Shown piece after piece: positions 2,795 to 17,395 of a DNA stretch of 42,392 bases. The notes beneath the pieces are model-generated. The model was not told the DNA's origin and did no database searches. It saw only the letters and a program-made list of their open reading frames with translations. Positions within the stretch are counted from its first letter, which is position 1. Each line of letters starts with the position of its first letter. This DNA comes from a virus (Duplodnaviria; Heunggongvirae; Uroviricota; Caudoviricetes), in the IMG/VR virus record IMGVR_UViG_2778261252_000011. One strand, written 5' to 3'. Position numbers and translations under genes: made by a program.

Positions 2795-5387
2795 TTGCAT
2801 ATTCCTTAGCCCAGCGGGGCAGTGATAATGTCTTAATAGCTGGCCATTCATCGGTATTCAGGCAGTCAGACAGGGTTCGCAGATTGCGGTGATATTCCTG
2901 TTGACCTGCCAGTTTTGCTTCTTCGCCCATCATGAAAATTTCAACCGGATAACGTCCGCATTCAATAGTTGTGCTGGCAACCAGAAAAACGAAAGTTGGC
3001 TGCACTCCAAACTGTGCTTCATAACCGTCACTGTAGAATGCATCCTGAACGTGATAGCGGTAGTCGTAATAAGCGGTTTTGAATCGTTGAATATCCGCCG
3101 TAGTTTTCACGTCCATGATCCAGTGAAATTCAGGGATAATTTTGTCCGGACGGCACCGACACAAAATTCCTGTTTCAGGATCTTCCCAGTAAATTGATGA
3201 TTCAGCGTGTCCGGCGCTTTCAACAAGCCATTGCCCCAGCGGCAAAGCCATAACGCTTTGATACATGAGTTCAATTTTCCGGCCTTCTTCCGCAGTGATA
3301 ACCGTTTTTCCTGTGCTTGCGCATTCCATCAGAAACGCTTTCTCTTCTTCTTTTCCGGCGTTTGTACGGCGGTTAAATTCAGGTGCTACGATAAAGCGGT
3401 TACTGAATTCTTCCGGTTCAAGTACCCGGCAGTGGAAAGCAGTTCCTAAATCGAGCGTTTTTGTCTTTGTGGTGTCCACGGGGGCATTTTTACGCCACAA
3501 ATATAGTGCCGGAGTATCAGCAATGTCATCGAGCTGAGACTTACTGATACCGGGACCCGCGTGGTAATTCTCATTCGAAATTCCGTAATAAATACCTGGC
3601 TCTATGTCTTCTACGATTACGGGATCTGCGACTTCGCCAGTTTCATCACTGCAATCGTGATGCGGATCGCTGCCAGCATTCTCATTGTGCGGATGTTCAG
3701 CGCCTTCCATTTCCTCCGGATCATTTTCCTTAGCTTCAACCTGACTCTCTTCATCGAATGTTTCCTGGTATGTTGCGTCGCCCATCACCGCACCACAGTC
3801 AGGGCAGTTATCCCCGCCAGTCTGGCCGCAGGCATTGCAGGCTATTTCCGGTTCCTGTTGCACTACTGGCTCAGGTTGATTCATATCTGGGCTGGTTTTT
3901 TCCGTTTCTGGCTGGTTCTGGTACACACAATCGCGAGTCTGGATCCCCTTTACCCATTTCGGATCGTTCGGGTCGCTAATTCCGTCAACAAATTCACCAC
4001 GTGATGCAGCAAGCAATTTATCGGCATCGACAGGATTTTTTGATGGAATGTTTTTCCGGGCTTCATGGAGTTCTGCCCGCAGTTCCTGATATTTCGCATC
4101 AACAGAATTTACCTGTGACTGAGCATCCAGCGGCTGCGTGTCCTGATGATGTTCAGTTGCGTCCGGTTCCATTGTTTCAGCCTCTCCCTGTTCAACTGCC
4201 GTTGTTCCAGATGGTTGCGGTTTTTCTTCATCATCCTGTTTTCCTTCTTCTGTTACTCGCTGCGGCATCGGGGCAGAGGAGCGACCGCAGGCAATATCCA
4301 CGATTTCCGGATCAGGGTTGGCATGATCGGTTTCAGTCAGTACTTTGTTCAGATATTCAGTGACGTGCGCGGGGATGACCTCGATCCCAATTGGTGCTTC
4401 TTTTACGGACGCAACCACGATGGCGCGGGAATAATCCAGCCCGCCAGGCATGGTGATGAATTTGTCGCGGAAAACAGAAAAGGGCGGTTTATTTTCAGCG
4501 ATAATTTCCTCAATGCGTTTAGCGTGTGCCGGATGAAGGTTATAGATGTCCAGATCCATTGAACGGGCCAGTACGCCAGTGGCTACGTCGCGCGCCAGTG
4601 ACGTCAGATCGTGTACGAAACCTTCGCCGCGATCGGTGAGGTTTCCGCCGCCAGCATTAGCACCGGAAGCCGTGCGAGTGATGTGTGAAACACGATTACC
4701 CTTCATCCACTCTTTTGTCAGCAGTCCTCGATCGGTGTAGTCAGCGTTCAGGTATGCTTCGAAAAAAGCAGTTATCAGTCCCAGGTTTGAATTACCAGGA
4801 TTAGGGAAAACTTTGTCAGTGTCACGAACCAGTTTGTGGAGTTCGCGAATTTCCAGCGGGTCGAGCAGGCTGGTTTTGTGGGAAACAGCCAGGGCAGTAA
4901 CAGCCGGTAGTTCTTCAGCCCGAGCAATGTGTAATGCCTGGAGTCCGTCGCGTGAAACGTGCGTTACCGGTTTTTCGCTGCCGTGTTGAGCAAGCCAACG
5001 AATGGGCAGTTCCTGGCCAGAAATTGGGAGTAGCATATTCTCCTCAATCTCAGTCATGTCTTCGCCGTTGACGTTGGTATTGCCTTGATAATGAGCGTTG
5101 TCTGGTGCTGCTCCCGGTTTTAGTTCCCATGTCATGGAGTCTTTGCTGAGTTGATAGCGTTCACTCCAGGTAAAATCGATCTCACCTTCAGCGGGCAGGT
5201 CATTAACGACAGGAAAATTCGTGGCAACAGCTTTAAAATAGCTGCTCAGTTTTTTACCTGACTTAACGATCAGGTAGTCCAGAGTGGCACAGGTCGATTC
5301 AAAATCGTTGCTTGCCCACAGGACGACGTCAGGTTCACCGGATGATTTTTTCGCTTTCCGTAACAGGAAGAGTGGTTTTGTGCTCAT
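2787..5387 (-). CDS. recE: RecE exodeoxyribonuclease VIII (866 aa)
   Basis: 866-aa ORF upstream of and overlapping recT; size and context match Rac recE. Many antisense ORFs lie inside it and are rejected. Confidence 0.9.
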
Positions 5388-12734: not shown

Positions 12735-13508
12735 TTAGAACTGTTCATTGCCATCGAGGTTAGGTAGCATAATTTTTTCAATCAAGGCGAGAGCCTTTTT
12801 GTCCCGGTCAGCGAAGTATTTCGGGGCATATTGCGGCAACCAAATATTGTTAAAATGTTCTTTGAAATCTGCTAAATATTCATTTGGGTACAGCCTTGCA
12901 GGGTATACGCGACCATCGGGATATTCATGGTCATAGGTAGGGAATGTTTTGGGTTCTACGTTTCTATTATCTCTTAACCATTGTGAAAATACTCTTCCTT
13001 GTGAAATGTCAGGAACCATTTTTTCTGGGAGTGTGTACCCTGCTTGTTCAAGAGGTGCAACCAAGTTGAATGTCAGTTCATTAAGAATAGAAAAGTGCGT
13101 GTGAGGAATTCTACTACGATTAACCATGTACCGTTTTAAATGTACAGGCATTTCTGCTGTAGTTCTTTCCCCTGACATCCATTCACGAACCCATCTTGAA
13201 ACCTGGACTGCAAATTTGGGCGATAGCCACTGCGCTAGATTAATAGCGATGTCAGGATGCACCCATGTCCCTTGGTTTTCAGGTCTTCCACCTTTAAATG
13301 ATTGAATTAACTCCGATATGGGAATTCCCATATCGCGTGATAATTCGTCAAAAAACTCTTGAGTAGTTTTGAGTCTAGTGTAATCAGAGAGCAGTTTGCC
13401 CGCAGTTCTACACATTGATGTGGCGTTTATGTAACCATCTTTGGCACGTAAATGTATTATTTCGCCGTCAATTTCACGAGAAATCAAAGATAATTGAAAG
13501 GATGTCAT
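12735..13508 (-). CDS. KilA-N domain protein (257 aa), opposite-strand moron
   Basis: N-terminal segment IHLRAKDGYINATSMCRTAGK... reads as a KilA-N/APSES-type domain; GAGGAA Shine-Dalgarno; transcribed against the flanking operons. Confidence 0.75.
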   Translation of the reverse strand: MTSFQLSLISREIDGEIIHLRAKDGYINATSMCRTAGKLLSDYTRLKTTQEFFDELSRDMGIPISELIQSFKGGRPENQGTWVHPDIAINLAQWLSPKFAVQVSRWVREWMSGERTTAEMPVHLKRYMVNRSRIPHTHFSILNELTFNLVAPLEQAGYTLPEKMVPDISQGRVFSQWLRDNRNVEPKTFPTYDHEYPDGRVYPARLYPNEYLADFKEHFNNIWLPQYAPKYFADRDKKALALIEKIMLPNLDGNEQF

Positions 13509-13827
13509 TGAAAATTCCTCAAGTTGGAGAGTTCTGGAACATTAAGGCGAGGTGGCAGTAATGCACCATCTGTAATCTTTTGATACTGACGTAATCGGGC
13601 CTGATGTGCAACGCCTTGCAAGTATGTAACTCATTGAAAACGATCATTTTTATCTATTGACATCAAATGGCAAACTGTCATTGTGCGGCTATGGCAAGTG
13701 GCAAATGCTTATAAATCATATGGATATAAATGGTACAGAAAGAGTTGTTTTCTCTAGGATATGAGTATACGCCCAATGCTGATTGGTTGAATTTTGTTCT
13801 TGTTTTAAAGGGTAAGAGTTTAAAGTG

Positions 13828-13856
13828 TTGGCAGTGATGTATTGGATAGTTAGAAT
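13828..13856 (+). promoter_or_regulatory. Sigma70-like promoter for the hok-like mRNA (-35 TTGGCA, 17-bp spacer, -10 TAGAAT)
   Basis: Hexamers read directly; predicted start falls at GGTGCTTGAGGCTATCTGCCTC, which resembles the hok mRNA 5' end as I recall it. Confidence 0.45.
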
Positions 13857-14030
13857 TGCTGTGGGTGCTTGAGGCTATCTGCCTCGGGCATGAACACCAA
13901 AGGTAGATAGAGAAAAGCCCCAGTTAACATTACGCGTCCTGCAAGACGTTTAACATTAATCTGAGGCCATATCTATGCGACACATAGAGATTAGCCTCTT
14001 ACGGACCGAAAGGTCAAGGAGAAGCAGGCT

Positions 14031-14156
14031 ATGAAGCAGCAAAAGGCGATGTTAATCGCCCTGATCGTCATCTGTTTAACCGTCATAGTGACGGCACTGG
14101 TAACGAGGAAATACCTCTGCGAGGTACGAATCCGAACTGGCAGACGGAGGCTCTGA
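14031..14156 (+). CDS. Hok/Gef-family type I toxin, C-terminally truncated or divergent (41 aa); possible frameshifted allele
   Basis: Translation MKQQKAMLIALIVICLTVIVTALVTRKYLCEVRIRTGRRRL; the family-typical C-terminal segment is absent; a 19-codon mok-like upstream ORF (13975-14034) overlaps the start. Confidence 0.6.
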   Translation: MKQQKAMLIALIVICLTVIVTALVTRKYLCEVRIRTGRRRL

Positions 14157-14238
14157 TTCGTAGACTACTAATCTGAGTAAAAGACCCAGCGGGGAAAGAA
14201 CCACGCCGGGACTAGTTAATAAGATATTTATAGCGTGG

Positions 14239-14580
14239 CTATTCTTTTTTTGCGGTATAGACTTTTTCGCCTGAGAAGTCTGGAGCTACCCAAAAGTTAA
14301 TATTAAACTGAGCATCATCGCTTAGTTCAACACGGTGCCAGTATTGTGGTGGGCTTGTTGCAAAAGCGCCAGCATTAATGACTACTTTTATCTCCGGTTC
14401 AGTAGCATTCTCATCAGCAAAACCATAATATGTTACAGTACCTTCCATCACGCATAACTGTCCAAAAACACCTGCTGCTGTATTATGATGTGTTAATAAC
14501 GCTGAAGGTACGTTCTCTTTTGTGAAGAACGGAGTTGAGCGTTTGATTACCCAGTCTTTAGGAATTCTCTTGTGTGTCAT
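14239..14580 (-). CDS. YeaR-like DUF1971 protein (113 aa)
   Basis: Translation MTHKRIPKDWVIKRSTPFFTKENVPSALL... resembles E. coli YeaR as I recall it; GGAGGTGG Shine-Dalgarno upstream of ATG 14580. Confidence 0.65.
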   Translation of the reverse strand: MTHKRIPKDWVIKRSTPFFTKENVPSALLTHHNTAAGVFGQLCVMEGTVTYYGFADENATEPEIKVVINAGAFATSPPQYWHRVELSDDAQFNINFWVAPDFSGEKVYTAKKE

Positions 14581-15447
14581 AACCACCTCCCATAAAACAT
14601 GCATTATAAATGCACCCTTTTGAGGGTTATGTCAAACTGTTATGAAACACATAATTGATATGTTGATTAGAGGAGAAGATAGAATCAATATGGTTGTTTT
14701 TCGTATAACTATTTGTTTTACTTTTAGTTTGTGCATTCTGTGTGTTAGGAATAACTTATTAAAGTTTAACTAAAAAATCTCGATATAGTCCGCATAGATT
14801 ACTGTTACTGAATCTTATTGTGTGCATTAGTTGTGTTCTGAAATTTCAATTTAATTACTTATGATATATTTTTAACGATAAATGTTTTCCGGGTGAAAGA
14901 CAGTGGGGGATGAGATAAGCAATATATCATTAATCTTGATTATTTCCAGGATGCCTTTACTGTGCATATAAATAAATCATATACGCATCAAATAATGTAA
15001 AGGCATCCTTTTAGATATATCTTATCAAATGTTAATGATTTGAGTGGGAAACATGATTCCAGAAACTAATCATGCGGCTACTTTATAAAAATAATGCCCA
15101 TATAAAACAGCCAGCGAAAAGGATTACGGATAAAAAAGGAGCGAGATGTGCATAGTTGTTATTTTCCATGTTTAACCACCTTAAATAATTGATGATGACG
15201 GGATGTGCATCTGTAATGCTTTTGTTGAAATGTTATGATAAAAAAGAACTTTTTCATAACATTAAAATGTAATTTATCTAATCGTTTTTAATAATAAGTG
15301 TTGTATTTCTATCCTTGTATCAGCTATTTGATATGTAGTGTTTGTTCATGTTATGTGGAGCTTTACACCATAGCCAGTTTATTTATACTTTATTCGTCAG
15401 CCTGAACAACTGGCATCTGCTGCACTGCGCCATCGAGAGATTGAGAA

Positions 15448-16047
15448 ATGGCGCATATACAACTGGTCAAACAAACCTCTTCTGGACTACTTCTCCCGGC
15501 GACGCCGGAGAGTTGCGATTTTTTGCATCAAATCAAAATAGGCGAGTGGATACACGCAGACTTTAAGCGTGTGCGTAACTACGCATTCCACAAGCGTTTT
15601 TTCAAACTCCTGCAACTGGGATTCGATTACTGGACTCCGGTCGGTGGGGCGATCACGCCTCGCGAACGAAAGCTGGTTTCAGGATTCGTTGATTACCTAT
15701 GTGAATCAGTAGGCCGGGAACATACGCCAGCTCTGAGCGAAGCCGCAGAGCAATATCTGAATACAGTTGCGACACGCAGAACCCGGGATACGGCATTGCT
15801 AAAGTCGTTTGAGGCTTTTCGCGAGTGGGTAACCATTCAGGCTGGATTTTACACCGAACATTTTTATCCGGACGGTAGCCGCGGGCGTCGGGCAAAATCT
15901 ATCGCTTTTGCGAATATGGACGAAACCGAGTTTCAGCAGGTTTATAAATCTGTTCTGAATGTGCTGTGGAACTGGATTCTGTTCCGTAAATTTTCCTCTC
16001 CGGAACAAGTCGAAAATGTGGCCGCGCAGCTGCTGGAGTTTGCGTAA
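15448..16047 (+). CDS. Nin-region phage protein (199 aa), possibly DUF1367-like
   Basis: First gene after the AT-rich island, directly upstream of the YbcO-like gene; family name is tentative. Confidence 0.55.
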   Translation: MAHIQLVKQTSSGLLLPATPESCDFLHQIKIGEWIHADFKRVRNYAFHKRFFKLLQLGFDYWTPVGGAITPRERKLVSGFVDYLCESVGREHTPALSEAAEQYLNTVATRRTRDTALLKSFEAFREWVTIQAGFYTEHFYPDGSRGRRAKSIAFANMDETEFQQVYKSVLNVLWNWILFRKFSSPEQVENVAAQLLEFA

Positions 16048-17241: not shown

Positions 17242-17317
<76 letters not shown>

Positions 17318-17320
17318 TAT

Positions 17321-17395
<75 letters not shown>

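Follow-up and report, generated by a model that had tools for sequence, protein, structure and literature searches.

A Rac-type lambdoid prophage of Escherichia coli carries a gene for a small, single-domain DUF1971 protein of the STM1808 type, and the gene is preceded by a predicted operator for the host stress sensor NsrR. The reading we favor, with a probability of roughly 0.6, is that this gene is a moron expressed in the lysogen under NsrR control, and that the cupin it encodes aids growth under nitrosative stress. The gene occupies positions 14239–14580 on the minus strand of the 42,392-nt stretch of DNA analyzed here (the window; IMG/VR record IMGVR_UViG_2778261252_000011).

The list of open reading frames (ORFs) gives the gene at exactly the coordinates and strand of the first-pass annotation: an uninterrupted frame of 342 nt that opens with ATG, closes with TAG, codes for 113 aa and is preceded by a strong Shine-Dalgarno (SD) sequence. 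This sequence, GGAGGTGG, was read at 14583–14590 (minus strand), with its GGAGG core (14586–14590) 5 nt before the ATG; orthologues have GGAGG or GGAG at the equivalent position. The RefSeq entry for the 342-nt coding sequence is WP_001445776.1, ‘DUF1971 domain-containing protein’. An alternative in-frame ATG at 14604, which gives the 121-aa product annotated in ON470614, was rejected because of the SD position, because all orthologues begin with MTH or MSH, and because RefSeq holds the 342-nt CDS.

To place the protein within its family, we compared it with profile, structure and sequence collections. It matches Pfam DUF1971 (PF09313, cupin clan) over the entire profile (positions 1–80 of 80; E = 3e-26, 91.6 bits against a cut-off of 23.1), so that the family assignment made at first reading is clearly correct, and it matches PHROG 34268 (‘unknown function’) over its full length (E = 6e-81). 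The AlphaFold model is all-beta with a pLDDT of 90.3, and superimposes on PDB entry 3dl3 with a TM-score of 0.93 and on 3bb6 (YeaR) with 0.82; outside DUF1971, structure comparison returned weak similarity to metal-dependent cupin oxygenases and nothing else. Among PDB sequence matches, 3dl3 is the best by far (E = 2.6e-59), followed by 3bb6 (E = 4.6e-25) and 3m70, the N-terminal domain of Haemophilus influenzae TehB (E = 3.7e-10). A search of 5.8 billion proteins revealed a tight subfamily of 111–114 aa, 74–83% identical to the window protein, in Salmonella, Klebsiella, Raoultella, Vibrio, Aliivibrio, Photobacterium, Shewanella, Agarivorans and others; chromosomal relatives also occur in Citrobacter, Kluyvera and Leclercia as well as in the Vibrionaceae. 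In an alignment of the phage protein with 15 homologues the mean column identity is 81%, and H31, H32, C43, E46, H82 and E85 are among the invariant residues. We defined the subfamily by a single domain of about 111–114 aa, at least about 74% identity among members, and clear separation from YeaR. The window protein has all three properties, and its membership in this STM1808-type subfamily, apart from YeaR, is virtually certain.

The resemblance to YeaR proposed in the first-pass annotation therefore holds at the level of Pfam family and fold, and at 44% identity to the E. coli K-12 protein (BLASTP, 101 aa, E = 3e-32), but YeaR is a distant paralogue belonging to another subfamily. The shared family and fold, together with an NsrR box in both genes, could be taken to mean that the prophage captured a copy of E. 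coli yeaR, controlled by NarL and nitrate as well as by NsrR in the manner of yeaR-yoaG. We regard such a capture as scarcely credible, and comparison of the sequences already refutes it: identity to the STM1808-type subfamily is 79–84%, against 44% to YeaR; YeaR forms a long-branch outgroup in a neighbor-joining tree; and the gene has neither a NarL 7-2-7 site upstream nor a yoaG downstream. A YeaR orthologue with yoaG behind it was likewise rejected, since identity is only 44% and no minus-strand ORF of at least 60 aa lies between the gene and the hok locus.

The name TehB, attached to several relatives, points in a different direction. Some RefSeq records read ‘TehB family protein’ or ‘tellurite resistance protein B’, 3dl3 was itself named TehB, and H. 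influenzae TehB has this domain at its N-terminus, all of which could suggest a determinant of resistance to tellurite or another toxic oxyanion. We consider this very unlikely. TehB is defined by its SAM-methyltransferase domain, which the window protein lacks; the name derives from domain homology only, and the conserved regulator site is that of NsrR, which points to nitric oxide (NO) rather than tellurite. The NCBIfam TehB equivalog model reaches 48 bits where its cut-off is 303, and it aligns over model positions 11–106 of 289 only; a TehB-type SAM-dependent methyltransferase was rejected because the 113-aa protein has no C-terminal methyltransferase domain. A role in anti-phage defense was also set aside, as the PADLOC defense-system models gave no match to the DUF1971 protein.

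The closest functional reference is a Salmonella protein encoded beside dsbB. The Salmonella gene order is fadR-nhaB-dsbB-[DUF1971]-ycgN-ycgM-ycgL-minC, and the dsbB-linked protein, sometimes labeled ‘cytoplasmic protein’, is a Salmonella core gene product (at least 1,000 contigs, including serovar Typhimurium). It aligns with the window protein at 79% identity without gaps, and H32 and H82 carry the same numbers in both. We take fadR, nhaB and dsbB to be STM1805–1807, so that the order fits STM1805–1808, and from gene order and residue numbering we infer that the dsbB-linked protein is STM1808. STM1808 is reportedly required for growth under nitrosative stress and is said to be a zinc metalloprotein whose zinc binding and NO resistance both depend on H32 and H82. 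Identification as STM1808 is supported by the occurrence of these two histidines at exactly these positions in the Salmonella and window proteins alike. Two later papers (PMC7527575, PMC7082413) count STM1808 among the NsrR-regulon genes and ascribe to it a part in virulence, with reference to Karlinsey et al. 2012 (Mol Microbiol 85:1179). Earlier, Rodionov et al. 2005 (PMC1274295) had predicted that NsrR regulates ‘tehB homologues’ in all enterobacteria and in Photobacterium, and a follow-up study found the true tehB methyltransferase gene to be free of NsrR regulation; these observations fit a predicted target that was the DUF1971 gene rather than the tehB methyltransferase gene.

The dsbB/ycgN slot also holds an orthologue in Citrobacter, the Klebsiella oxytoca group, Raoultella, Yokenella and Phytobacter. 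In Kluyvera, Leclercia, Pantoea, Buttiauxella and relatives the orthologue is found at another chromosomal site (in Kluyvera ascorbata, for example, its neighbors encode a molybdopterin oxidoreductase and a deoxynucleoside kinase). Because Kluyvera/Leclercia-type members lie outside the slot, dsbB-ycgN synteny does not define the whole subfamily.

The first-pass annotation had proposed a search for NsrR or NarL motifs upstream of the gene, and the outcome differs sharply between the two. For NsrR, we built a palindromic position weight matrix (PWM) from the 26 distinct 11-1-11 sites of a ChIP-seq study in strain CFT073 (PMC5320621, Table 4). The highest score in the entire 42-kb window, 20.1 bits, falls on a 23-bp inverted repeat at 14596–14618 that reads AGGGTGCATTTATAATGCATGTT on the gene strand (minus) and ends 15 nt 5′ of the ATG; the runner-up anywhere in the window reaches 12.5 bits. 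The same matrix gives 20.3 bits for the validated hmp site and 23.9 bits for that of yeaR. A score of 20.1 bits is expected by chance at about 3e-6 per position even at 30% GC, in agreement with Markov simulations; the expectation for 200 nt of upstream sequence is 2e-5 to 7e-4, under 1e-3 in any case. For NarL, by contrast, the consensus TACYYMT-N2-AKRRGTA with up to 3 mismatches has no match in 14581–14800, and its total in the window is at chance level; nitrate control in the style of YeaR is thus not supported for the phage copy. Searches upstream of the gene for Fur and FNR boxes found neither, and Fur control, which is seen in Kluyvera-type orthologues, is likewise not supported here.

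The predicted operator recurs in the relatives of the gene. Scanning one genome per species yielded 350 loci, the best 80 of which were fetched. Of the 55 enterobacterial loci among these best 80, 54 have a box of at least 20 bits located 15–27 nt before the ATG, and the lone exception carries a 1-nt deletion within the box. Most of these boxes score 24–30 bits and are stronger than that of the window (20.1 bits), and in nearly all 54 box-bearing loci the fetched sequence (up to 8 kb) contains no second site that reaches 15 bits. Among the 25 non-enterobacterial loci in the same best 80 (Vibrionaceae, Shewanella, Agarivorans, Neptunomonas), a box occurs in three, all of them Photobacterium. 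These data make NsrR control of the prophage gene quite probable, on the strength of the motif and its conservation.

How could such an operator act? Candidate promoter and terminator elements, which are predictions, were identified by orthologue alignment and RNA folding. A perfect –35 hexamer, TTGACA (14630–14635, minus strand), precedes the box by 11 nt, at the position taken by TTTACA in Kluyvera/Leclercia-type orthologues. Two candidate –10 elements were read within the box (14603–14612, minus strand): CATTTA (14607–14612), a poor hexamer 17 nt from the –35, and a perfect TATAAT (14603–14608) displaced by a further 4 nt, giving a spacing of 21 nt. At the 17-nt position orthologues have TATTTT or TATATT, the TATTTT of Kluyvera-type orthologues also lying inside the box. 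Every –10 candidate would therefore sit inside the predicted operator, the classic geometry for repression by occlusion. A generic sigma-70 promoter and terminator scan called neither a promoter nor a terminator for the gene; the promoter escaped because the hexamer at 17 nt is a poor CATTTA and the perfect TATAAT stands at 21 nt, and the terminator-like hairpin was missed because its loop exceeds 8 nt. This hairpin (CCCGGCG...CGCUGGG, 14179–14210, minus strand) starts 29 nt after the stop codon and is followed by UCUUUU. The minus-strand segment 14150–14245 folds at –26 kcal/mol (z = –2.7), and hairpin and UCUUUU together form a plausible terminator.

The surroundings of the gene are those of a prophage accessory region. 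The window is a Rac-type lambdoid prophage with int, ralR/RalA, recET, kilR, sieB, racR, ydaS/T, replication genes and trkG, and also with nin-like genes (DUF1367, DUF1364, DUF1133), lysis genes, and terminase and head genes. Over the queried 1.85-kb segment (13600–15450) it shares 99.7% identity with three GenBank ‘phage’ records. These were rejected as induced virions, since according to their source preprint they are PHASTER-predicted ‘intact’ prophages from carbapenemase-producing clinical isolates. DUF1971 occurs in only three of 50,697 phage records, all of which are copies of the present prophage. The gene runs antisense within an accessory interval (about 12.6–15.4 kb) that extends from the replication genes to the nin genes and also contains a KilA-N protein with a BstA-like match and a hok/sok locus on the plus strand (Rfam sok, 13863–14033; hok ORF, 14031–14156). 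The terminator-like hairpin overlaps the 3′ region of the convergent hok transcript.

On its other side the gene is flanked by an AT-rich island (14636–15447, 28–32% GC), upstream of the gene and included here as context, and the location between a hok-like locus and an AT-rich stretch described at first pass is thus confirmed (sok/hok on one side, 28–32% GC over about 14600–15350 on the other). The gene itself has 41% GC and a GC3 of 0.32, and the flanks have about 50% GC. The island was treated as non-coding rather than coding: its ORFs do not exceed 43 aa, the small ones lack an SD, and its variants tolerate indels of 1 and 2 nt (one of 57 nt also occurs). An Rfam search of the island (E ≤ 1) returned no RNA family. 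DNA of this kind is silenced by H-NS, and the island is likely an H-NS target. The island travels with the gene: at least 80% of it is covered in 463 genomes, against 453 for the gene. The nin-proximal half of the island occurs at 73–76% identity in about 900 further genomes that have no copy of the gene, including CFT073, so that the gene and the left half of the island look like an inserted module.

To determine how the gene is distributed, we searched 5,426 complete E. coli genomes and found it in 457 (8.4%): 103 at a nucleotide identity of at least 99%, 327 at 95–99% and 27 at 90–95%. With the Salmonella gene as query, the same number of genomes was recovered, at 73–76% identity, and nothing further. 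Since that search matches the prophage allele alone, E. coli has no chromosomal orthologue (0 of 5,426 complete genomes), and the only STM1808-type gene of the species is the Rac-linked prophage allele; in K-12 the dsbB-ycgN slot holds umuDC and hlyE. The first-pass annotation had called the gene host-derived cargo. It is indeed accessory cargo, that is, a moron, as indicated by its opposite strand, its atypical composition and its absence from most related Rac prophages; an origin in E. coli itself is not supported, given the lack of a chromosomal orthologue. In a neighbor-joining tree (no bootstrap) the phage allele, together with its Shigella variant, forms the sister group of the Kluyvera/Leclercia clade. 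Protein identity to the closest chromosomal relatives is only 81–84%, and the GC3 of enterobacterial orthologues is 0.40–0.69, compared with 0.32 here; this low GC3 and the 81–84% identity imply that the capture was not recent or that the donor is unsampled.

Variation among E. coli alleles shows what has been kept. Relative to the window allele, variants carry 6–8 synonymous and 1–2 non-synonymous changes per 100 codons, a pattern of purifying-type constraint on the coding sequence. No variant examined has a disrupted ORF or SD, the predicted box is kept at 20.7–25.7 bits, and box and –35 are preserved between alleles that differ by 4–5% in DNA; in one variant an IS element lies directly upstream of the conserved –35. 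The gene also outlasts its prophage. At least 149 genomes have lost the prophage's left part, so that the gene abuts a chromosomal MFS transporter gene, as it does in a representative of Shigella flexneri, and in strain AR_0128 it is kept between two IS elements, adjoining a truncated tail-fiber gene. Such retention in decayed prophages is what one expects of a gene that benefits the host.

These observations bear on two other accounts of the gene. It could be a silent hitchhiker, an H-NS-silenced or promoter-dead fossil that benefits neither host nor phage and persists in a recombination-tolerant accessory slot. The generic scan called no canonical promoter, the flank is very AT-rich, only 8.4% of E. 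coli genomes have the gene, and its box is weaker than those of chromosomal orthologues (20 versus 24–30 bits), all as a fossil would have it. The intact ORF and SD, the excess of synonymous over non-synonymous changes, the retention of box and –35 across diverged alleles, and the survival of the gene through prophage deletion and IS disruption argue to the contrary, and we judge silence to be unlikely. The second account places the phage at the center: NO-triggered antisense transcription would oppose rightward early transcription toward nin and Q, or the operator would titrate NsrR, with the protein being secondary. The unit does run against the early-right operon, in the stretch from the replication genes to nin/Q, and titration of NsrR by multicopy operators is an established laboratory effect (PMC5320621). 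If this account were true, NO from the host would influence whether the prophage is induced or how the lytic cycle proceeds, or induction would turn on host NO defenses, since an operator amplified by phage replication could titrate scarce NsrR. However, since non-phage chromosomes contain the same promoter-operator-gene unit, it did not arise as a device for phage regulation; in addition, the coding sequence shows purifying-type constraint, and the unit is kept in remnants without lytic genes. We therefore hold a phage-centered device to be highly improbable.

We return to the reading of the gene as a lysogen-expressed, NsrR-controlled moron. The prophage would deliver a self-contained unit (promoter, NsrR operator, SD, coding sequence and terminator-like hairpin) antisense between its replication and nin regions. 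In the unstressed lysogen, host [4Fe-4S] NsrR would occupy the 11-1-11 box over the –10 and block RNA polymerase. Nitric oxide would then nitrosylate NsrR and destroy its Fe-S cluster, the box would be vacated and the gene transcribed, and the histidine-containing cupin would aid growth under nitrosative stress, as reported for STM1808. E. coli would thereby gain a function for which Salmonella, Citrobacter and Klebsiella have a chromosomal gene. Within this scheme we infer that NsrR binds, that the promoter is active without H-NS silencing, that the protein binds zinc, and that NO tolerance improves; we give even odds to a measurable NO phenotype of the gene. E. coli already has YeaR, and the added benefit may be small.

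What does this arrangement mean for the host? About 8% of complete E. coli genomes, many of them clinical isolates, obtain an STM1808-type gene solely through a Rac-type prophage. If the gene is NsrR-controlled and protective, it would clearly exemplify how a prophage can bring a stress gene, its control already in place, into a regulon of the host, which might matter for survival in the inflamed gut, the urinary tract or macrophages. It also offers a simple system in which to study DUF1971 cupin function: one gene, one predicted operator, and natural presence and absence among strains. The DUF1971 family, NsrR control of yeaR and STM1808, and phage morons are already known, and databases label the gene DUF1971. 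What appears to be new is that a Rac-family prophage is the sole supplier of an STM1808-type gene in E. coli, that the gene seems to arrive with a conserved, predicted NsrR operator, and that it appears to be preferentially retained as the prophage decays. Our literature search found no paper on a prophage-supplied STM1808-type gene with an NsrR box in E. coli.

It is instructive to set the gene beside the systems it most resembles. The presumed STM1808 of Salmonella Typhimurium is likewise a monocistronic gene for a 113-aa protein with H32 and H82, and has, as the window gene does, a predicted NsrR box just upstream of its SD. It differs in occupying the chromosomal dsbB-ycgN slot, whereas the window gene lies inside a Rac-type prophage, in the distance from box to ATG (27 nt versus 15 nt), and in GC3 (0.55 versus 0.32). 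E. coli YeaR (yeaR-yoaG; 3bb6) shares the Pfam family and the cupin fold (TM-score 0.82), and in yeaR, as predicted for the window gene, the NsrR box covers the –10, with the hexamer central in the palindrome (TAAAAT in yeaR). In contrast, yeaR has a yoaG partner and a NarL 7-2-7 site, both of which the window gene lacks, the two proteins are only 44% identical, and the leader that follows the box is 66 nt in yeaR but about 15 nt here. The Aliivibrio (Vibrio) fischeri ‘TehB’ protein VfR98 (3dl3) belongs to the same subfamily, with 77–84% identity and a TM-score of 0.93; it is a structural-genomics target encoded by a chromosomal gene, whereas the window gene is prophage-borne. Most Vibrionaceae orthologues among the best 80 of 350 loci lack a recognizable NsrR box, while the window gene has a predicted one.

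As a genetic element, the gene is closest to the lambdoid morons, such as bor and lom of lambda and hokW of 933W. These too sit in accessory slots and have atypical composition and variable presence; they are independent transcription units, as the window gene is predicted to be, and 933W hokW occupies the same replication-to-nin interval. By analogy, both they and the window gene are plausibly expressed from the repressed prophage to the benefit of the host. Unlike the usual lambdoid morons, however, the gene described here brings a DUF1971 cargo that is essentially unique among phages, and places it under the predicted control of a host stress sensor, NsrR.

The prophage decays around the DUF1971 gene while the gene itself is retained, as we observed at four loci: L086 (Escherichia coli AR_0128), L087, L004 (Shigella flexneri) and L085 (E. 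coli GF47). The gene is flanked by IS3 and ISSen4 elements in AR_0128, and in GF47 queH, encoding epoxyqueuosine reductase, takes the place of the kilA-N and hok genes of the window. In at least 149 genomes, a chromosomal MFS transporter immediately adjoins the DUF1971 gene.

Upstream of the gene in the window lies an AT-rich island (14636-15447, 28-32% GC), in which no ORF exceeds 43 aa and an Rfam search returned no match. The island tolerates variation between alleles, in the form of indels of 1, 2 and 57 nt, and its right half (15082-15447) shares 73-76% identity with ∼900 E. coli genomes that do not carry the gene, CFT073 included. It may serve as an H-NS target, or as the site of a nin-region promoter, for which TTTACA and TATACT separated by 16 nt (15362-15389) are the candidate elements.

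In the orthologues of Kluyvera, Leclercia, Pantoea, Buttiauxella and Intestinirhabdus (L005-L025, L035 and L083), a Fur-box-like 19-mer occupies a constant site directly upstream of the -35 element, ∼64-66 nt before the start codon of the DUF1971 gene (ATG at locus position 4001). It differs from GATAATGATAATCATTATC by 2-6 mismatches, against a background of 8-9, and was not found in the dsbB-linked orthologues or in the phage copies of the gene. This element suggests dual control of those orthologues by Fur and NsrR. Only one enterobacterial orthologue, that of Leclercia adecarboxylata (L013), has a poorly scoring NsrR box (12.2 bits, upstream of the gene at 784): a 1-nt deletion disrupts the 11-1-11 spacing, which could make this a naturally occurring operator-down or constitutive allele.

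Elsewhere in the window, two adjacent tRNA genes (17242-17392, + strand), labeled Thr and Gly by RefSeq on an identical region, separate the Q-like gene from the lysis cassette. Beside ralR, the window clearly encodes the RalA antitoxin sRNA (1557-1735, + strand, 225 bits); the source preprint on the matching prophages reported RalA as undetected.

BstA is an abortive-infection defense protein encoded by prophages. The KilA-N protein encoded beside the hok locus (12735-13508, - strand) hits the BstA model of PADLOC over residues 119-238 (E = 3e-21), and the accessory interval may thus hold three modules of benefit to the lysogen: BstA-like, hok/sok and DUF1971. At the hok/sok locus (13863-14156, + strand), Rfam gives a strong sok RNA match (101 bits). 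The hok ORF encodes only 41 aa, ending in ...RIRTGRRRL, and because Hok is usually ∼50 aa long, the toxin may be truncated or inactive. At the DNA level, the locus shares 91.5% identity with the hokW/sokW pair found in Stx phages, for example 933W.
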